From assembly GCA_023422005.1 (NCBI GenBank), contig JAEZSC010000151.1, positions 25,182 through 89,181 on the forward strand: DNA of 64,000 nt. The letters run 5' to 3'. Each line of letters opens with the position of its first letter. Position 1 is the first letter of the stretch. Under the pieces are notes generated by a model. That model had not been told where the DNA came from. It worked only from the letters and a program-made list of their open reading frames with translations, and searched no databases. The DNA comes from Bacillota bacterium (lineage in GTDB: Bacteria > Bacillota > Clostridia > Christensenellales > UMGS416). Positions 3,733 to 44,525 of this stretch are shown here, in pieces. The position numbers and the translations under genes are program-made.

Positions 3733-3884
3733 GGTTCCCTCCTGTTGTATGGATTTAGCAGGACCAGAATAACTCAAGTGCAGACCGCAACCCATACACG
3801 CGGCGTGAAGGTTTGCCGATTGCTATCAACTTCAGGTTGAGTTCATAGGCTGTCAAAATACCCTGCGGGATTTTGACAGCCTTT

Positions 3885-4086
3885 CGCAGATGACGCCGCG
3901 GCGCCATCTGCGATTCAGACGACTTGTCATGACTGCCTTTTATCGCCTGCCGCGCATGTCGCCAGGCGATATCTTTACTTTTACTCTCATTTTCCGTTCT
4001 AAAAGGCGTTTTCGCCTGCGGGCGGTTTCTTTATTTACCCTCTGCTCATTCTCTGTTTCCTCCCGCCGGATGAACCGTCGGTCGGC
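3885..4086 (+). repeat. Copy B of the four-hairpin intergenic repeat family, preceded by an extra hairpin at 3848-3881
   Basis: Hairpin 1 CGCAGATG/CATCTGCG (3885-3912). Linker ATTCAGACGACTTGTCA. Hairpin 2 TATCGCCTG/CAGGCGATA (3941-3971). Hairpin 3 CGCCTGCGGGCGG followed by TTTCTTTATTT (4013-4035). TTTCCTCCC at 4056-4064. Hairpin 4 CCGCCGG-atgaa-CCGTCGG (4063-4081). Confidence 0.6.
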
Positions 4087-4167
4087 ATCTTGTTGTTCTT
4101 CACTTATGGGTTCTTTAACAAGAAGGAGGGCTCAATCACAGGTTAAGTTTACGATATCACAAATGGT

Positions 4168-4586: not shown

Positions 4587-4614
4587 TTGACAAACTGCTG
4601 GCGTTTGGTAGAAT
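4587..4614 (+). promoter_or_regulatory. Sigma-A-type promoter for the glyQS leader
   Basis: TTGACA (4587-4592), a 16-nt spacer, then TAGAAT (4609-4614) with TGG just upstream. Confidence 0.6.
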
Positions 4615-4619
4615 ATACT

Positions 4620-4819
4620 GCAACAACCAAAATGCGCGAGGACGGAACAAACGGCCCGCACAGGCGGCACACAGCGAACCGGGGATAGTGGGAGCCCGGC
4701 AGCGCCGGCGGATTCGGAGGCATTCCTGAGCGAACCAATCAAGGTGGGCCGCAAGGCCAAAAAGGGTGGAACCGCGAAAGCACAGCCTTTCGTCCCTTTG
4801 TGGGACGGAAGGCTTTTTG
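4620..4819 (+). promoter_or_regulatory. T-box leader (riboswitch) controlling glyQS
   Basis: Conserved T-box sequence AAAGGGTGGAACCGCG (4761-4776). It is followed by the terminator AGCCTTTCGTCCC-tttgt-GGGACGGAAGGCT and TTTTT (4784-4819). It sits between the promoter and glyQS. Confidence 0.85.
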
Positions 4820-4848
4820 TATTGTCTGATAAAAAAGGAGGAATGGAT

Positions 4849-6231
4849 ATGGAAAACTTCATGGACAAACTTGTGGCGCTGTGCAAAGGGCGCGGCTTCG
4901 TGTTCCCCGGCTCGGCCATCTATGGCGGCCTGGCCAACTCCTGGGACTATGGCCCGCTGGGCGTGGAGTTCAAGAACAACGTCAAGCGCGCCTGGTGGCA
5001 GAAATTCGTGCAGGAGAGCCCCTACAACGTGGGCATGGACAGCGCGATCCTGATGAACCGCGAGGTGTGGGTCGCCTCCGGCCACGTCGTGAACTTCAAC
5101 GACCCGCTGATCGACTGCAAGGCCTGCAAGATGCGCCACCGTGCCGACAAGCTTGTGGAAGAGTACAACGCCGGGCACGGCATCGCGATGCAGGTGGACG
5201 GCATGAGCAACGACGCGCTGACCGCCTATATTCAGGAGCACAAGGTCACCTGCCCCGGCTGCGGCAAGTCGGACTTTACGGCCATCCGCAAGTTCAACAT
5301 GATGTTCAAGACCCATCAGGGCGTCACCGAAGACAGCCAGACCGAGGTGTACCTGCGCCCGGAGACGGCCCAGGGCATCTTCGTGAACTTCAAAAACGTG
5401 CAGCGTTCCACACGCAGGAAAGTCCCCTTCGGCATCGCGCAGATCGGCAAGAGCTTCCGCAACGAGATCACGCCGGGTAACTTCATCTTCCGCATCCGCG
5501 AGTTCGAGCAGATGGAACTGGAGTTCTTCTGCAAGCCCGGCGAAGACCTTGAGTGGTTCGCCTATTGGCGCAATTTCTGCCACCAATGGCTGCTCAGCCT
5601 GGGCATGAAGGACGAGAACCTGCGCCTTCGCGACCATGACAAGGAGGAGCTCTCCCATTACTCCAAGGCGACGACGGACTTCGAGTATCAGTTCCCCTTC
5701 GGCTGGGGCGAGCTGTGGGGTGTCGCCGACCGCACCGATTTCGACCTGAAGCAGCACAGCCAGCACAGCGGCGAGGCGATGGAATACATCGACCCGGTGA
5801 CCAACGAGCGATACATCCCTTACGTGATCGAACCAAGCCTGGGCGCCGACCGTGTGGCGCTGGCCTTCCTGTGCAACGCCTACGAAGAGCAGAAGCTGGA
5901 AGGCGACGACAGCCGTGTCGTACTGCACCTGCACCCGGTGCTGGCCCCCTTCAAGGCCGCCATCCTGCCGCTGCAGAAGAAACTTGATGCACCCGCAACA
6001 GAGCTTTATCACAAGTTGCTCAAGCGCTTCATGGTGGATTATGACCTGACCGGCTCCATCGGCAAGCGCTACCGCCGCCAGGATGAGATCGGCACCCCCT
6101 ACTGCATCACCTTCGACTTCGACAGCCTGGAGGATAACGCCGTTACGATTCGTGACCGCGACAGCATGACACAGGTTCGTGTGCCCATCGATGAGGTGGA
6201 GAGCTGGCTGGCGGAGAAGGTAACATTCTAG
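4849..6231 (+). CDS. glyQS: Glycine--tRNA ligase (homodimeric class II type)
   Basis: 460 aa from [38 protein letters not shown], a typical GlyQS N-terminus. AGGAGG lies 8 nt upstream of ATG 4849. Confidence 0.95.
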
Positions 6232-26965: not shown

Positions 26966-27176
26966 GCGGGGGAACTTCTCCCCCGCCGATACCACCCCTA
27001 GCCTATGACCACCTTACTCTCTGGTTCGCGTAGCCCACTGCCGCACATGTCGCCAGCGGGCCTCCTGTTATCCGTCTATTGCTGTTTTGCCTGGAACGAT
27101 AGACCGCTACAGCGGGGTTCTTTTTTGTAGTTCTATCTTGGCACTCGTTTCCTTGGCCGGATGAACCGGCCTGCGG
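26966..27176 (+). repeat. Copy D (divergent) of the four-hairpin intergenic repeat family
   Basis: Same order of parts. Hairpin GCGGGGGA/TCCCCCGC followed by CGAT. Hairpin 2 GCCCACTG/CAGCGGGC, with loop ccgcacatgtcgc nearly identical to copy B. Hairpin CCGCTACAGCGG followed by GGTTCTTTTTT. TTTCCTTGG followed by GGCCGG-atgaa-CCGGCC. Confidence 0.4.
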
Positions 27177-27333
27177 CAATAAAGCATTCGGTTCTTGCGT
27201 ACAAGCGTAGGGCCGTATTGCATACGGCCTTCAACGGCGACCCTGAAAACCGCAATCCTTTATGCTATAATTCGAATTGACTATAGTCTGGCGAGTTTAA
27301 CTGCAAACTCTAACTATGGGAGGATTTCGTTTT

Positions 27334-28143
27334 ATGCCGGTGATTAATAATCCTAGTACAGTTCAGGAGCAATACAAAACGCAGGACAATCTTGCCGCAC
27401 GCAGGGGCCTGCATCAGAAATATGACAGGAACAAGAAGTGGGCGCACTGGCTATTCGAGAATTACCATTTCTTTGAGGGCTGCCGCATTCTGGAGATTGG
27501 CTGCGGAGACGGCTCCATGTGGGAAGGGCGTATCGAGACCCTGCCAGAGGGCGCAAAACTGGAGCTGACGGACTTTTCACCGGCGATGGTGGACATCGTT
27601 CGGGGCAAGTTTGGAAATATTGCGAATGTCACTGCCCGTGAAATGGACATCCAAAGCATAGACGCGGCGGACAACTCTTACGATGTGATCATTGCCACCC
27701 TTGTGTTGCAGCATGTTCCGGATCTCCAGAAGGCAATTGCTGAGGTTTACCGCGTACTTAAGCCGCAGGGCATCTTTTACGCTTTTACCTTCGGAAAAAA
27801 TGGCGCAATCCGATTCCTGCGGGAGAAGCTGCAGGAGTTTGACCCTTCCCTGGATGTCTATAAAGAAAGCGACTATCCCCTCACGATGCAGACCGTTCGT
27901 GAGCCGCTGAAAAAGAACTTTGAGGATGTCGTACTATACCGGTACGCCGATTTTCTGGAGGTAACCGATTCGGCGGACTTGGTGGAGTATGTACTGTCCT
28001 CAACGGCGATGGCCGGGTTTGACAGGTCGCGAGCCGGCAGTCTGCAGGTGTTTTTCGACTCATGTAAGGATGAGAATGGAATCATTTATTTTCCCAGAGA
28101 GTACGGCATGTATATGGCGCAGAAGAATTTGCGGGAACTATAA
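27334..28143 (+). CDS. Class I SAM-dependent methyltransferase
   Basis: Start set at MPVINNPS (GGGAGGA RBS). Motif I ILEIGCGDGS. GC is visibly lower than in flanking genes. Confidence 0.85.
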   Translation: MPVINNPSTVQEQYKTQDNLAARRGLHQKYDRNKKWAHWLFENYHFFEGCRILEIGCGDGSMWEGRIETLPEGAKLELTDFSPAMVDIVRGKFGNIANVTAREMDIQSIDAADNSYDVIIATLVLQHVPDLQKAIAEVYRVLKPQGIFYAFTFGKNGAIRFLREKLQEFDPSLDVYKESDYPLTMQTVREPLKKNFEDVVLYRYADFLEVTDSADLVEYVLSSTAMAGFDRSRAGSLQVFFDSCKDENGIIYFPREYGMYMAQKNLREL

Positions 28144-28588
28144 GCAAATAGCATTTGCCATTGGATGGTTAGAATGCGGGTAAAAAATAAAGTCAACGAT
28201 ACGTACGCTATATACGAAACAGGCATAAAGAAAGCTGAAATGTCCGATGAAGAGCTTTCTGTTCAATTATCGGTGTCAATATGCGACGCATATGCTGCCA
28301 ATCCTGTACCCACGGCAATTTCTGTGCTGTCGGCAACTACGACGACGAAATCTTTTGCTTATCGGATATTGAAGTAAAAACTATAGACGATATGCTTCAA
28401 CCCACAGAAGACCATGAGGAAAGTGTTGGTGCTCACTGCAGATACCACAATACAAATAATATCGATCAAAATGTTCTGGTGCTCGATGACAGGGACTATT
28501 GCAAAGGCGGACAGCATTTCCTTGGACTGTCTTGAATTTCGGAATAGTTATATTATGTTGTGGTTGGATGGATTAAGGGAGGTTTATA

Positions 28589-28963
28589 TTGTATATAAAC
28601 GAATATAACAATTATATTCTTAGAACTATTGATTGTGAGTCGCGTGCAATCATTATTAGTGACGATAAAAAAAACTATAGGAATCTTATCGATTTTGGTA
28701 ATTGTTGCATAAATTTAACGGATGAAAATGGAGATTTATATGTGTCACGATGGGAAAGCCCTGAATATCAAGCTATCTCCATTTCTGAGGACGATTTTTG
28801 GAAAATATGTGGCATTACGGACTACATATGCAACTACATAACAAATGGAGTAAAGGGGGGAATTACTGAGGCGTTTGGGTTTTGGGATGACTGGAACAAC
28901 AGCTTCCAAGTAATTGAGGTAAATAATATGTATTATGGAATCTATTGGTGGACAACAGCGTAG
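28589..28963 (+). CDS. Hypothetical protein in an AT-rich islet
   Basis: 124 aa. TTG start 6 nt after a strong AAGGGAGG RBS. No recognisable motif. Composition is rich in N/Y/I/W. Confidence 0.55.
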   Translation: MYINEYNNYILRTIDCESRAIIISDDKKNYRNLIDFGNCCINLTDENGDLYVSRWESPEYQAISISEDDFWKICGITDYICNYITNGVKGGITEAFGFWDDWNNSFQVIEVNNMYYGIYWWTTA

Positions 28964-29195
28964 TTGCGTCTCAGAAGTTTTTAGAAGCTACAGACAATTC
29001 TCACGATTAGCCAACCATACCAACGGGAGAGCAGCTGGAGAGAGGGTTCCTTACAGTCACATCCCCCATTCTAAGCACATCGAACAATCCACCGGCCCAA
29101 AACCATCAAAACTCGTCAAGGAACGGCAGCTTTCCTCGGTTGCCCCTTTGTCGGCTGTCGCATAGAATGGGTTTATATCAGTACAGGAGAACGCC

Positions 29196-37545: not shown

Positions 37546-37565
37546 AAGCGACTACGCGTATTGAA

Positions 37566-37597
37566 GGCTCCGATCCGAGGATCGGGGCCTTTCTTTT
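37566..37597 (+). terminator. Intrinsic terminator of tyrS
   Basis: GGCTCCGATCC-gag-GATCGGGGCC followed by TTTCTTTT. Confidence 0.8.
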
Positions 37598-37801
37598 CGC
37601 CTGCGGCGCTGTTGCGCCTTGGCGATTCAGACGGCTTGTCACAATGGACGTATATCGCCCGCCGATGACGGTCGTCGGGCGATTCCTCAGCTTATTTTGC
37701 ACATACCTTGTTGTTTGGAGACGAAAACGCCTGTGGGCGGGTTTGGTGTCGTTTCTCGCTCTATACTCGGTTTCCTCCCGCCGAGTTAATCGGCGGTCGA
37801 C
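37598..37801 (+). repeat. Copy C (best preserved) of the four-hairpin intergenic repeat family
   Basis: Hairpin 1 CGCC..GGCGC-tgtt-GCGCC..GGCG (37598-37624). Linker ATTCAGACGGCTTGTCAC. Hairpin 2 ATCGCCCG/CGGGCGAT (37654-37683). Hairpin 3 CGCCTGTGGGCGG followed by GTTTGG (37728-37746). TTTCCTCCC at 37771-37779. Hairpin 4 CCGCCGA-gttaa-TCGGCGG (37778-37796). Confidence 0.6.
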
Positions 37802-37947
37802 TCTGCATTTTTATTTTTTCGCTAAGTTTGCAGAAAGTCTTATAACATCCCTAGTCTAATAACATCCCTCTTGACAGCGATGAACGACGGGGCTATATTA
37901 AGTGTGCTAGCACAGATATCACACTTGCCCCGGAAGGAGGCATCCCG

Positions 37948-38334
37948 TTGTTCACCATCGATTTGCGCAGCCGCGTGCCGATCTACGAACAGATCAAAAA
38001 CCAGACCATGGAGCTGATCCTGCTGGGTGCGCTGCAGCCCCACCAGCAGCTGCCCTCCATACGGGAGCTGGCGCGGGAGCTCCAGCTCAACGTCAACACG
38101 GTCAAAAAGGCATTCCAGGATCTGGAGGCCGACGGCGTCATCTATTCGCTGATCGGCCGTGGCAGCTTTGTGTCCGAGAACGCACTGGGCGGAGACCAGC
38201 TGAAAAAACGCGCCACCGAGGAGCTCAGGACGGCACTGCAGGCCGCCCGGGCCAGCGGGTTGACGCCGGCGCAGGCACGCGCCATCTTGCAGGACGTATA
38301 CGAAGAAAATGATGAAAGGGATGATCGTACGTGA
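37948..38334 (+). CDS. GntR family transcriptional regulator (YtrA subfamily size)
   Basis: 128 aa. TTG start after GGAAGGAGG. Winged-HTH LPSIRELARELQLNVNTVKKAFQDLEADGVI. Confidence 0.85.
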   Translation: MFTIDLRSRVPIYEQIKNQTMELILLGALQPHQQLPSIRELARELQLNVNTVKKAFQDLEADGVIYSLIGRGSFVSENALGGDQLKKRATEELRTALQAARASGLTPAQARAILQDVYEENDERDDRT

Positions 38335-39236
38335 TCGAGGTCAAAAACCTGACCAAACGCTACGGCGACTTCACCGCTTTACAGGGGCTGTCGCTGAAAG
38401 CCGAACGCGGCTCGGTCTATGGCCTGGTGGGCTACAACGGCGCGGGCAAAACCACGCTGCTCAAATGCGCCATCGGCATGTACAAGCCCGAGGAGGGCAA
38501 GGTGCTCGTGGAGGGCGAGGACGTGTTCGACAACGCCCAAAGAAAGAGGGACATGTTTTTCGTGCCCGACGACGTGTACTTTCTGCCGCAGGCCACGATG
38601 GCGCGCATGGCGCAGTTCTACCGGGGCTTCTACCCGTGCTGGAACCAGAGCACCTTCGACAAGCTGACCAAAGTGTTTCAGCTGGACCCCAACAAGCGCG
38701 TCAACGGTTTTTCCAAGGGCATGCAGAAGCAGGCGGCCATCATAGTGGCGCTGTCCACACATCCCAAGTATCTGCTGCTGGATGAGCTCTTCGACGGCCT
38801 GGACCCGGTAATTCGCAACCTTGTGCGCCAGCTGCTGATGGAGATCATCTCCGGCCGTGACACGACGGTGATCCTGTCTTCCCATAACCTGCGGGAGCTG
38901 GAGGACCTCTGCGACCACATCGGCGTCATCAACCGCCAGCACATCGTCTATAACAGTTCCATCTACGACCTGCGCAGTTCCCGCTGCCAATACCGCGTGA
39001 TACTACCCGCCGACGCCAAGGAGGATGACTTCACGCCAATCCCCTGCGCCAAGCTCAAGCTCAGCGGGCGGGTGGCCACGTTCCTCTCCCGCGGCGACGA
39101 AGCGACGATAGACGGCATGCTGGCGGCGCTGTCCCCGGTGCTGGTAGAAAAGCTGCCCATGACGCTGGAAGAGCTCTTTCTGGATGAAATGGAGGTAGGA
39201 GAATATGACTTCTCAGGTCTCTTTGACGGCGAATAG
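38331..39236 (+). CDS. ABC transporter ATP-binding protein
   Basis: 301 aa. GYNGAGKTT, FSKGMQKQAAI, LLLDELFDGLD. A 4-nt overlap with the GntR gene. Confidence 0.9.
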   Translation: MIEVKNLTKRYGDFTALQGLSLKAERGSVYGLVGYNGAGKTTLLKCAIGMYKPEEGKVLVEGEDVFDNAQRKRDMFFVPDDVYFLPQATMARMAQFYRGFYPCWNQSTFDKLTKVFQLDPNKRVNGFSKGMQKQAAIIVALSTHPKYLLLDELFDGLDPVIRNLVRQLLMEIISGRDTTVILSSHNLRELEDLCDHIGVINRQHIVYNSSIYDLRSSRCQYRVILPADAKEDDFTPIPCAKLKLSGRVATFLSRGDEATIDGMLAALSPVLVEKLPMTLEELFLDEMEVGEYDFSGLFDGE

Positions 39237-41475
39237 CAGGGTGCGGCGGTACCGCCCATGGGCCCACTCCTTCTGGCAGGCCATCGGCGAAAGCATGCTG
39301 CTGACCATACTGTGCACCATCCTCTTTTTGGCGGTAATCGTGCTGCCCACCATTGTCATTCTAACCGCGCGCAACGGGCTGGGCGAAGCCACATACAGCT
39401 CCATAAAGTATTTCTTGTTCGATGGCCCCACACTGAGCCTGCTTTTCCCGGCGCTGGCACTGCTGTCCGCATTGCTGCAGGGCGTGATGGCCTTCCGCTT
39501 CCTTTTCAACCGCAGCGCCGCCAACGTGTGGTTTGGCATGGGGCTTTCGCGCCATGAGCTGTTCTGCTCGCGCTACGCGGCGGGGGCCGCAGGCGCGCTG
39601 CTGCCTCTGGTCGTCACGATGCTGGCCACGCTGGCTGTCAACCTGGCCCTGTTTGCCGACACAGGTCTGGCGCTGGCGCGGATCGCCTTCTTTACGCTGG
39701 GCATGGGCCTGCAGATACTGGCGTTATACAGCGTAGTCGTGCTGGTGTGCTGCGCCTGCAAGACGCTGGCGGAGGGCATCGCCTATTCGGTGATCCTGAT
39801 GGCGCTGCCCACCCTGCTTGGGATGAGCCTGAACGGGCTGCTGCTGCACCTGCTGCCCGGCAACGGCTTTGGCCTGTCAGATACGCTCTACTACAGTTGG
39901 AACACAGCGCTGATCCGCGAACTGTCGGACTGGAACCCACTGATCTTCATGAGCCAATATATCAGCCGCTTCGGCAGCGAGTCGAAACTCGCCAGCACCG
40001 GCTATCAGGAATACCTGGCCAGCCTGCCTCCGCTGCCCATCCGCTGGGCTCTGATACCGGGCTGGCTGGCCGCCACGGGCGCGCTGCTGTGGTTTGCCCA
40101 TCGGGTTTTCCTGAAAACCGGGGTGGAGCACACCGGCGTGCTGGGCGCGGGCAAGGCCACCGCTTACACCAGCGTGCTGACCGTCGGCTTCTTCGCCTTA
40201 GGGCTTGTGTACATGCTGCCGCTGTATACCACGATGAAGCTTTCCACCGGCGCCATGCTGGCCATCGCGGTGGCATCAGCCAGCCTTGTGATGCTGGCGG
40301 CGGCGCTCCCGCTGCGGCTGCTGCGCCGGCGGGTTTGGATGGGCCTGCTCCCCTTGGTCACAGGCCTGGCCGCCATGCTGGCGCTCGTGGGGGTGCTCGT
40401 GTCCGGTGGCCTTGGCTACAGCGGTTTTGTGCCAAAAGCCGAAGAAGTGAAGAGCATTGAAATGTCTTATAATGGGCTGGATTTCTATATGCCTATGGGA
40501 AATGGTGGCAGCAGCGGCGGCGGGCTCGTGCCGGACATGAGCTATGAGAACTATATCACGCTAGAGGACAATGCCGACATCGCCGCAGCGATTGAGGTTC
40601 ACCGCGCGCTGACGCAGGCTGGCCTGCTGAGCCGGAACATGAAAGTGGACGGCGGCCGGGCGTATGGCGCTGTCACCCAGATCACCTACACGATGGCCAA
40701 CGGCGACACCGTGACCCGCGCCTATCAAGCGCTGACGCCGGACCTGATCAGAACCATGATGGCGCTGGACAACACCGCGGCGGTGAAGAAGGCCTATCGC
40801 GACCATCTGCTGTCGAACGAGGACGAACAGCCGAGCTGGGAAGTGGCCCCCTATCGATCCGGCAACGTCTATCTGTGCGCGCCGTTCTTTGGCAGCACTC
40901 AACTTTTGGGTTTGGATGAAGCACAGCATGAAAAGCTGCTGAAATGCATCGCTGACGACCTGGCCGCCCAGACGCCAGAGGACCGCTATCTGCCGGCGAA
41001 ACCGGAGACGTGCATCCTGACGTTTACGGCGCAGGGTGGCACGACGGAAGACGCCGGGTACGAGGGCAGGTTCGTATCCATCACGGAGCAGTTCACCGAA
41101 ACGCTGGCCTACCTGCGAGAAAATGGTTGGATGAACGCTATACAGAACACCGCGGAAATCGAGTATCTCGGCCTGTTGGATTACGACAAGATCAGCCACT
41201 CCTACGACTACAATGCGATGCACTCCTTCCCGATCTTCTACAGCGGGTTCGGGGCGCAGCAGGACATTGAGCGCTACAAGCAGTCTGACGAGTTAAAGTT
41301 CTTCCTGAGCGACAAAGTACAGCAACAGGAGGTGCTGTCCCGCTCGCGCAGTCTGTACCTAGCCAGTGAAGGCGGCTATGTCGTGTTCATCAAGTACAAA
41401 GGGGAGGATCGGGTGGTGTCTGCCTTCCTGCCGGCCAAGGACGCTCCGGACTATGTGGTGGAAGGTACTAAATAG
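39205..41475 (+). CDS. Large polytopic membrane protein, putative permease partner of the preceding ATPase, with an extracytoplasmic C-terminal domain of about 300 aa
   Basis: 756 aa. Many hydrophobic segments in the first ~440 aa and a soluble-looking tail. GGAGGTAGGAG RBS. Overlaps the ATPase gene end. Confidence 0.7.
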   Translation: MTSQVSLTANSRVRRYRPWAHSFWQAIGESMLLTILCTILFLAVIVLPTIVILTARNGLGEATYSSIKYFLFDGPTLSLLFPALALLSALLQGVMAFRFLFNRSAANVWFGMGLSRHELFCSRYAAGAAGALLPLVVTMLATLAVNLALFADTGLALARIAFFTLGMGLQILALYSVVVLVCCACKTLAEGIAYSVILMALPTLLGMSLNGLLLHLLPGNGFGLSDTLYYSWNTALIRELSDWNPLIFMSQYISRFGSESKLASTGYQEYLASLPPLPIRWALIPGWLAATGALLWFAHRVFLKTGVEHTGVLGAGKATAYTSVLTVGFFALGLVYMLPLYTTMKLSTGAMLAIAVASASLVMLAAALPLRLLRRRVWMGLLPLVTGLAAMLALVGVLVSGGLGYSGFVPKAEEVKSIEMSYNGLDFYMPMGNGGSSGGGLVPDMSYENYITLEDNADIAAAIEVHRALTQAGLLSRNMKVDGGRAYGAVTQITYTMANGDTVTRAYQALTPDLIRTMMALDNTAAVKKAYRDHLLSNEDEQPSWEVAPYRSGNVYLCAPFFGSTQLLGLDEAQHEKLLKCIADDLAAQTPEDRYLPAKPETCILTFTAQGGTTEDAGYEGRFVSITEQFTETLAYLRENGWMNAIQNTAEIEYLGLLDYDKISHSYDYNAMHSFPIFYSGFGAQQDIERYKQSDELKFFLSDKVQQQEVLSRSRSLYLASEGGYVVFIKYKGEDRVVSAFLPAKDAPDYVVEGTK

Positions 41476-41654
41476 CTTATAGCAGATAAATACTTAGGGG
41501 CTGTTGCGTTAGTAGCGAATGGCATTTTCATTCAAGAGATCGGACCGAAGGTTTCCAAAGGGCGACCGGAAAGCCCTTTGGTCGCGCCCGATGGCGCGAA
41601 ATCCGTTCCTTTGTTTGATATGCACTTTATGCGCCAGCGCGACAGCCCTCTCTC

Positions 41655-41816
41655 TTAGCTTTCCTTCTTCGCCCGGCGCTCGCACCGGGTAAGGCCGCCC
41701 CTGCCATGGTGGAAACCGCGGCATGCCTCGCAGTTGCGGTTGCGCTCGCACTTGGCGTTGGAGCACGGGCACTGCGTTGGGTCATAGAGCACCGGCTGCT
41801 CTTGTTTCTTTTCCAT
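41655..41816 (-). CDS. Small Cys-rich protein (53 aa), not in the supplied ORF track
   Basis: My translation: MEKKQEQPVLYDPTQCPCSNAKCERNRNCEACRGFHHGRGGLTRCERRAKKES. AAGGAG lies 8 nt upstream of the ATG. It starts 22 nt downstream of the GrpB stop. Confidence 0.6.
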   Translation of the reverse strand: MEKKQEQPVLYDPTQCPCSNAKCERNRNCEACRGFHHGRGGLTRCERRAKKES

Positions 41817-44333: not shown

Positions 44334-44525
44334 GATAGAACGTTGCCTTCCCCCTCGGGGGGCTGGTCGGATGCTACGCATCCTGCTCGCCCATGCGTCC
44401 TGGAAGGTGGCGCGCAGCGCCGGATGAGAGGCGCGAGAGCAAGGTTGGCACCTCATCAGTCGCCTGCGGCGACAGCTTCCCCTCCAGGGGAAGCCTTTAG
44501 TTGACTCATATAAAGCGCCGTCACC

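Follow-up and report, generated by a model that had tools for sequence, protein, structure and literature searches.

A dispersed family of structured, non-coding intergenic repeats with four ordered hairpins in a Clostridia lineage

Introduction

The closest described systems are short, structured and largely non-coding units of bacterial intergenic DNA. BOX, RUP and SPRITE of Streptococcus pneumoniae, together with bcr1 and EFAR, are modular, hairpin-forming intergenic repeats of Firmicutes, non-coding, 100-300 nt in length, high in copy number and without a transposase of their own, and RUP additionally has inverted termini and a TA duplication. REP units, including BIME and REPIN (RAYT), are G+C-rich imperfect palindromes of 20-40 nt whose foot is conserved and whose upper stem varies; they alternate in orientation and occur as many extragenic, lineage-specific copies, often at gene ends near terminators. 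PATEs, which derive from IS200/IS605, are short and non-coding, carry two hairpins near their ends, have neither terminal inverted repeats nor target duplication, abut a short conserved flank with one end and are often co-oriented with neighbouring copies. Group IIC introns insert directly 3' of intrinsic-terminator hairpins, and IS110-family members favour hairpin or palindromic targets and targets of the inverse ribosome-binding-site type. In the IS110-family element ISPpu9 of Pseudomonas putida, the small-RNA module ssr9 is a stand-alone structured non-coding unit with extra copies at palindromic extragenic sites, and the transposase, encoded elsewhere, circularises and moves ssr9 alone (PMC12288879).

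The element described here shares features with each of these systems and departs from each. It is like BOX, RUP and SPRITE in its modular, hairpin-forming design, but has no known sequence similarity to them and a much lower pairwise identity among its copies (50-78%). It resembles REP in its G+C-rich palindromes, conserved foot, variable upper stem and genomic placement; unlike REP, it is a unit of about 215 nt with four hairpins in fixed order and orientation and with conserved loops. The likeness to PATEs seems to extend to size, end hairpins, the lack of inverted termini and of target duplication, the conserved flank at one end and the frequent co-orientation of neighbours. In contrast to PATEs, however, it has four ordered hairpins with conserved internal linkers instead of two end hairpins, hairpin 1 begins at the very boundary, no IS200/IS605 parent with matching ends occurs in the sequence sampled, and its empty sites lack the clean 'target + flank' junctions that peel-and-paste transposition predicts. 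With ssr9 it has the stand-alone, structured, multicopy character in common, yet phylum and sequence differ, no IS110-type gene was seen here, and the copy number is far higher. Group IIC introns share the insertion directly 3' of terminator hairpins, but the element is far too short and has no 5' GUGYG, domain V, Rfam group II match or reverse transcriptase. The best reading is that it represents a previously undescribed family within a known kind, the structured non-autonomous intergenic repeats of the REP/PATE/BOX type.

Results

The analysed stretch of 64 kb (the window; 60.5% G+C, matched identically by metagenome contigs in ENA) contains exactly four copies of the element, designated A to D and all on the + strand, according to a profile search built from the four (full-length nhmmer E-values 1e-47 to 1e-51). 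This bears out the initial annotation, which had regarded four + strand regions as copies of one element, since all of them align and share ordered parts, with covariance-model (cmsearch) scores of 112-202 bits. For comparison we used two strains near the window, S3 (GCA_023435775.1), which is 98% identical, and S2, which is a mosaic, as well as related species; among these, the metagenome-assembled genome (MAG) 'Bacillota bacterium OH_CBB_189' is a sister species of the window species with about 93% identity in genes. Judged by protein names, the nearest named relatives belong to Acetanaerobacterium. The features of the four copies are as follows:

1754-1959, + strand: copy A core (cmsearch 162 bits, sequence, inverted repeats)
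1758-1787, + strand: copy A hairpin 1
1784-1800, + strand: copy A linker
1880-1892, + strand: copy A hairpin 3
1924-1931, + strand: copy A motif TTTCCTCC
1931-1947, + strand: copy A hairpin 4
3847-3882, + strand: extra 5' hairpin H0 of copy B, GGCTGTCAAAA...TTTTGACAGCC, terminator-like
3880-4092, + strand: copy B core (cmsearch 202 bits; also in strain S3)
3884-3913, + strand: copy B hairpin 1
3910-3926, + strand: copy B linker
3941-3971, + strand: copy B hairpin 2
4013-4025, + strand: copy B hairpin 3
4056-4064, + strand: copy B motif TTTCCTCCC
4064-4080, + strand: copy B hairpin 4
4081-4085, + strand: copy B GTCGG
about 26987-27183, + strand: copy C, diverged subfamily (cmsearch 112 bits)
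27033-27061, + strand: copy C hairpin 2
27104-27115, + strand: copy C hairpin 3
27155-27171, + strand: copy C hairpin 4, GGCCGG ATGAA CCGGCC
37593-37807, + strand: copy D core (cmsearch 173 bits, sequence)
37597-37625, + strand: copy D hairpin 1
37622-37638, + strand: copy D linker
37654-37683, + strand: copy D hairpin 2
37728-37740, + strand: copy D hairpin 3
37771-37779, + strand: copy D motif TTTCCTCCC
37779-37795, + strand: copy D hairpin 4
37602-37864, + strand: segment present in the window strain and S2, with 28 nt in its place in S3

The locations first assigned to the copies hold, but not their ends, as the unit starts at TTCGC and extends about 10-50 nt beyond hairpin 4. Similarly, the architecture that had been described as common to all four applies to A, B and D, whereas copy C is without the canonical hairpin 1 and linker; what had been read as its hairpin 1 (GCGGGGGAACTTCTCCCCCGC, 26966-26986) is flanking DNA, which is retained without the element in a related species (L030). 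Copy C and three further loci (L001, L015 and L046) form a diverged subfamily, in which hairpins 2-4 and their loops are kept and the stems differ. Copy A occupies almost the entire gap of a convergent gene pair with stop codons at 1748 and 1990. Copy B has a tail in common with L008 that reaches about position 4122 (81% identity over 3910-4122), and its additional hairpin H0 is present at three unrelated loci (window copy B, L008 and L011), where it is always joined to the element and never found alone; the upper stem of H0 covaries.

Alignment of 21 copies with their flanks defines a non-coding unit of about 215-260 nt, composed of a conserved core of about 215 nt and a loosely conserved tail of 10-50 nt. 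The left boundary, between CCTTT and TCGCC, is sharp, unrelated sequence that mostly ends in CCTTT being followed by a near-invariant TTCGC, and the right end is diffuse. From left to right, the unit consists of hairpin 1 (conserved foot TCGC/GCGA and loop GCTGNNGC, covarying middle), the linker GCGATTCAGACGACTTG as a conserved single-stranded motif, hairpin 2 (ATCGCCYGCCG/CGCCRGGCGAT with the loop CRCATGT or ATAACCGT), a free spacer with CTCAT, hairpin 3 (TCGCC-TGYG-GGCGG), another free spacer, GTTTCCTCC with the conserved single-stranded motif TTTCCTCC, hairpin 4 (CGCCGR-RTRAA-YCGGCG, loop RTGAA) and GTCGGYWTC, after which the poorly conserved tail begins. Hairpins 1-3 have the common foot TCGCC...GGCGA or GGCGG, the stem of hairpin 2 includes a conserved C·C mismatch, which is an A-T pair in the second variant, and the loop of hairpin 3 on the + strand is often of the UNCG type (UGCG/UUCG). 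The view that hairpin 1 is entirely different between copies has to be abandoned, only its middle being variable, and the T-rich tract after hairpin 3, initially counted as part of the family, is not conserved. Conservation runs across the whole unit, internal linkers and loops included. Considered singly, the exact linker GCGATTYAGACGRSTTG occurs three times, a count that 9 of 100 shuffles also reach, so that short motifs by themselves are weak evidence. No conserved ORF was found on either strand, the small ORF behind a minus-strand GGAGG not being conserved, and a search for long-range or pseudoknot covariation gave nothing convincing.

Covariation was analysed in 20 copies (the four of the window and 16 from related genomes) with a consensus structure of 31 pairs. 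Overall, 95.2% of the stem cells are paired, compared with 25-51% in slid controls, and changes on both sides were observed for 17 of the 31 pairs, amounting to 71 doubly changed cells against 21.5 in shuffles, with none of 500 shuffles reaching 71. Extending the set to 39 distinct rows gave 21 pairs and 142 doubly changed cells. The compensatory stem changes noted at the outset are thereby confirmed, although one hairpin-2 example (ATCGCCCG/CGGGCGAT), correct in its pairing, belongs to copy D and not to copy C. Watson-Crick pairs make up 92% of the stem cells, the remainder among 619 cells comprising 17 G·T, 11 A·C and 19 other mismatches; most broken pairs occur in one copy only, and local misalignment accounts for several of them (copies A, C and L014). 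In a structure under selection as RNA, G·U would be expected to be tolerated much more readily than A·C, and the counts of 17 and 11 are too small to show such a tolerance or a strand bias, wobble pairs being uninformative for strand assignment. Between the copy D alleles of the window strain and S2, one of about 14 substitutions lies in a stem and restores the pair. Because the copies are only 50-78% identical, with no two sampled copies above 78%, and nevertheless keep 95% of their stem cells paired, the pattern supports selection on structure and not simple recent duplication, as had been proposed.

In the sequence searched, the element is restricted to a few related, uncultured Clostridia of the gut type. 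An exact-pattern scan of 185,579 species genomes returned OH_CBB_189 and OH_SBrB_79 only, plus two chance matches, and the suggested covariance-model check, run as nhmmer and cmsearch on the fetched loci, yielded about 30 further full, diverged or partial copies in these two MAGs and in other strains. Viral contigs and JGI metagenomes, scanned with the pattern, yielded chance matches only (nhmmer check), plasmids and phages had no BLAST match to copy B, and no copy was found within 21 kb and 11.6 kb of two further relatives. That the element is no named RNA family was also corroborated, copies B and D producing only noise of 12-16 bits in Rfam at E<=10, and a scan of the whole window at gathering thresholds two tRNAs only. 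In sequence not picked for the element the density is about one copy per 15 kb, based on four copies in 73 kb of the window genome and on one full and two partial copies in 15 kb around glyQS of OH_SBrB_79.

The copies adjoin mutually unrelated genes, among them mnmE, mnmG, tyrS and those for H+-PPase, acetyl-xylan esterase and an MFS transporter. The upstream gene has the same orientation as the copy in 12 cases and the opposite one in 9, for the downstream gene these numbers are 9 and 10, respectively, and L003 and L013 contain copies of mixed orientation within one locus. GC skew was too weak a signal to assign the direction of replication. A gene lying between repeats in L007 and L013, considered as a transposase candidate, is mnmE, and ten other neighbours are housekeeping genes. 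Across about 400 kb of related sequence, sampled as 8-20-kb pieces, we found neither a transposase or recombinase nor a parent element that shares these ends and bears an ORF, and no solo element ends flanking an ORF.

The element behaves as dispersed DNA that is gained and lost. Copy D is absent from strain S3, in which the left break of the empty allele coincides with the left boundary of the family, directly after the T tract of the tyrS terminator (37564-37591). The window species, at 93% identity, has neither of two OH_CBB_189 copies (L010a and L010b) in its orthologous region, and at this place its mnmG overlaps the next gene by 14 nt. Taken together, retention was 0 of 2 copies between sister species and 3 of 4 between strains; for the mnmG/Gfo site no outgroup was found, and for the A and B sites no orthologue in the sister species, synteny not being conserved. 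Other states include a 5'-half copy in L042 (window species) and a tandem pair in L001; in L003 and L013 the loop of hairpin 2 is interrupted by insertions. Some short-read contigs terminate inside copies B and D. In OH_CBB_189, the element tail partly supplies the last 19 codons and the stop of mnmG (L010 3572-3627 versus L042 5108-5157). When L017 was compared with window 37590-37925, S2 proved to match the window without a difference over 35.0-37.5 kb and 38.0-39.9 kb, whereas the 335 nt between tyrS and gntR, where copy D lies, diverge by about 7% and also contain indels. One of the differences is a tandem duplication of 17 nt, found in the window at about 37846-37862, and the divergence reflects either a short recombination patch or local hypervariability.

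For its 5' end the element prefers positions a few bases 3' of strong hairpins or pyrimidine tracts (CCTTT) that were already in place, such sites being either a terminator foot or a ribosome-binding site in reverse complement. In 11 of 26 copies (42%), a hairpin of <= -15 kcal/mol ends <=5 nt from the left boundary, compared with 10.7% of 2,160 positions taken as controls from the same intergenic sequence (binomial p 3e-5), and the count is 8 of 23 (p 0.002) after removal of the three H0 copies. At other copies the left flank CCTCC-TTT is the reverse complement of the ribosome-binding site of the opposite-strand gene. The initial annotation had named terminal inverted repeats together with target-site duplications, the marks of a classical MITE, as grounds for rejecting its view, and neither is present: the inverted complementarities are local hairpins and weak internal ones, no pair of which joins the termini, and a flanking direct repeat of >=9 nt is absent in 20 of 21 copies, the exception being L008, where a 27-nt terminator hairpin is duplicated on both sides.

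Neither of the two informative empty alleles gives a clean junction, 28-36 nt of other sequence standing in the place of the element. The mnmG site has CCTCC-TTTTCGCTGTCT-TGCTTTGCC in its empty allele and CCTCC-TTTCGCCTGCGG...GGGG-TGCTTTGACC in its filled one; at the D site the empty allele starts with TTTTTCTTGGCCAG and the filled one with TTTTCGCCTGCGG. The replacement sequence opens with 7-10 nt like the 5' end of the element (TTTTCGC(C)TG), as TTTTCGC at one empty site and in a gapped version at another, and a third site, which lies inside a 1.4-kb complex indel, has no such likeness. This likeness could be a target preference or requirement, a shared recombination core or a deletion footprint. 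T-rich similarity at the two junctions differs consistently (TTTCGCC versus TTTGACA). An outward TTGACA-like box 30-40 nt past hairpin 4 was tried as a part of the element and rejected (log-likelihood 112.6 versus a null maximum of 112.3); related sequence also occurs in the empty allele, and the box may be flank.

Discussion

We consider it probable, with a probability of roughly 0.6, that the family consists of non-coding, non-autonomous dispersed repeats, that is, of selfish mobile DNA. In the broad sense of a MITE or non-autonomous element, the copies are short, non-coding, multicopy, located at unrelated loci and polymorphic for presence and absence. The hairpins and loops would serve as a recognition structure for a putative recombinase or transposase supplied in trans, and the stem covariation would reflect selection for competence in mobilisation among those lineages that keep copying, and not a function as host RNA. 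The family may thus be a large, old, steady-state population of selfish copies, in which only lineages retaining hairpins, loops and linkers go on being copied, giving rise to covariation. Individual copies would be young relative to the family, because few stem pairs are broken and none of the copies is common to the sister species, and the lineages of the family would be deeply diverged. As to the mechanism, our guess is a movement as folded single-stranded DNA by a putative HUH/Y1-type enzyme, as for the IS200/IS605-derived PATEs or REP/RAYT, because there are hairpins at both ends without inverted termini or clean duplication, and because stem mismatches are conserved and pairs are almost exclusively Watson-Crick. 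Several observations speak against mobile DNA, namely the lack of an enzyme gene or ORF-bearing parent in about 400 kb of related sequence, the diffuse right end and unclean empty-site junctions, and the conservation of the whole unit with its UNCG-type hairpin 3 loop, which looks more like RNA. In addition, the absence of any pair above 78% identity is unusual for an active MITE-like family, and calls for a family that is large, old and in steady state, or else for selection acting on every copy.

Each copy could instead be of use to the host, either as an RNA structure in the untranslated ends of neighbouring mRNAs (a stabiliser, terminator or insulator, similar to REP/BIME or BOX) or as a free sRNA whose UUUCCUCC pairs with ribosome-binding sites; we hold this to be unlikely, although it is the chief alternative. 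The near-complete preservation of stems, loops and linkers at such low identity argues for it, as do the UGCG/UUCG-type loops of hairpin 3 on the + strand, the pair-restoring substitution between the copy D alleles, the scan that called hairpin 3 of copy B and its T-rich tract terminator-like, and copy A, which is essentially the entire spacer of a convergent gene pair. The family has, however, no conserved promoter or terminator, its orientation relative to genes is random, the neighbouring genes are without a common function, and many copies lie directly 3' of a terminator, which would block read-through into them. Moreover, G·T is no commoner than A·C, and copies fail to be retained across sister species and even across strains. 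The more specific proposal of a multicopy, trans-acting sRNA with an anti-Shine-Dalgarno seed is not supported, as no promoter is conserved on either side (the left flanks being unrelated between copies), hairpin 3 is without a conserved T tract, and neither the orientation to the upstream gene nor the balance of G·T and A·C favours it.

An RNA gene module that parasitises an RNA-using recombinase, comparable to ssr9 or left over from a bridge RNA or omega RNA, would account for the multi-hairpin structure with conserved loops over the whole length, for the insertion beside hairpins or palindromes and inverse ribosome-binding-site sequences and for the lack of inverted termini, and ssr9 provides the precedent for a stand-alone RNA module that spreads with a transposase supplied in trans (PMC12288879). 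We nevertheless judge it very unlikely: we saw neither a DEDD nor a TnpB/IscB gene beside any of the copies, Rfam gave no match, and the large internal loops, such as the guide-holding ones of bridge RNAs, are missing. Hairpin 1 as a guide to the element's own flanks was rejected too, its variable part matching them at chance level (self means 5.05 and 5.45 versus non-self 5.28 and 5.33). Arrays of binding sites for a host protein, for example a factor of nucleoid or chromosome organisation that acts on double-stranded or cruciform DNA, would fit the common foot of three hairpins, the almost purely Watson-Crick stem cells with few G·T or A·C and the single strand occupied by the four window copies. 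The gain and loss of copies between close strains, the mixed orientation in L003 and L013 and the fixed order of four different hairpins with conserved loops, which an array does not need, make such arrays highly improbable.

A more far-reaching reading is unlikely: the repeats could form a new class of structure-dependent mobile elements that home to DNA hairpins, for example intrinsic terminators, at their 3' foot. A recombinase for which no link to elements of this sort has yet been described would then use the four-hairpin fold, as single-stranded DNA or RNA, as its substrate or cofactor, and TTTTCGCCTG, the likeness of 7-10 nt at empty sites, would be the recognition or crossover core. 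If the repeats are mobile, this uncultured lineage would carry roughly a hundred copies, if not more; located at gene boundaries, these would lengthen untranslated regions, part genes from promoters and, in one species, alter the C-terminus of MnmG, and they would be associated with contig ends in some short-read assemblies. Considering the clean stem covariation at 22-50% divergence and the preference for the foot of terminators, the family would be a good place to seek a hairpin-recognising mobilisation enzyme, and a covariance model of it would keep such regions from being misannotated as regulatory RNA.

Other features of the window

Besides the four-hairpin element, the window and its relatives contain other structured sequences. 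A second, unrelated hairpin repeat of about 120-150 nt with the core GGTCCGAAGGTTTCCAAAGGGCGACCGGAAAGCCCTTTGGTCGCGCC... is located at 41494-41646, enclosed by a terminator-like stem in whose loop it lies; S3 lacks it, OH_CBB_189 has it at five loci, with two copies inverted around mnmE, and Rfam gives no match. In L030, from an 80%-identical species, the whole gntR-ABC operon segment is missing relative to window 37600-41666, and the left-hand border of this gap falls at copy D, the right-hand one at the second repeat. L001 (5701-5934) and L015 (2516-2748) share a third repeat, 235 nt in length, 89% identical and in opposite orientation, which adjoins diverged copies of the element in OH_SBrB_79.

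Upstream of the gene for glycyl-tRNA synthetase (4849-6231), the region 4587-4820 on the + strand comprises a promoter-like site, a T-box leader (RF00230) and a terminator (4784-4814); the T-box match is sub-threshold (29.9 bits versus a gathering score of 93, E 4e-5) and absent from the default Rfam scan. At 44345-44500, a hairpin-bounded segment of about 125 nt between convergent genes has the opposite orientation in S3 (counterpart L031 17669-17767, 93% identical, the window strain having about 40 bases more), which could represent an invertible or re-inserted terminator module. Finally, an AT-rich stretch of about 950 nt at 28128-29074, in place of which S3 has about 630 nt of unrelated sequence, is, to judge from this comparison, probably a small strain-specific island.
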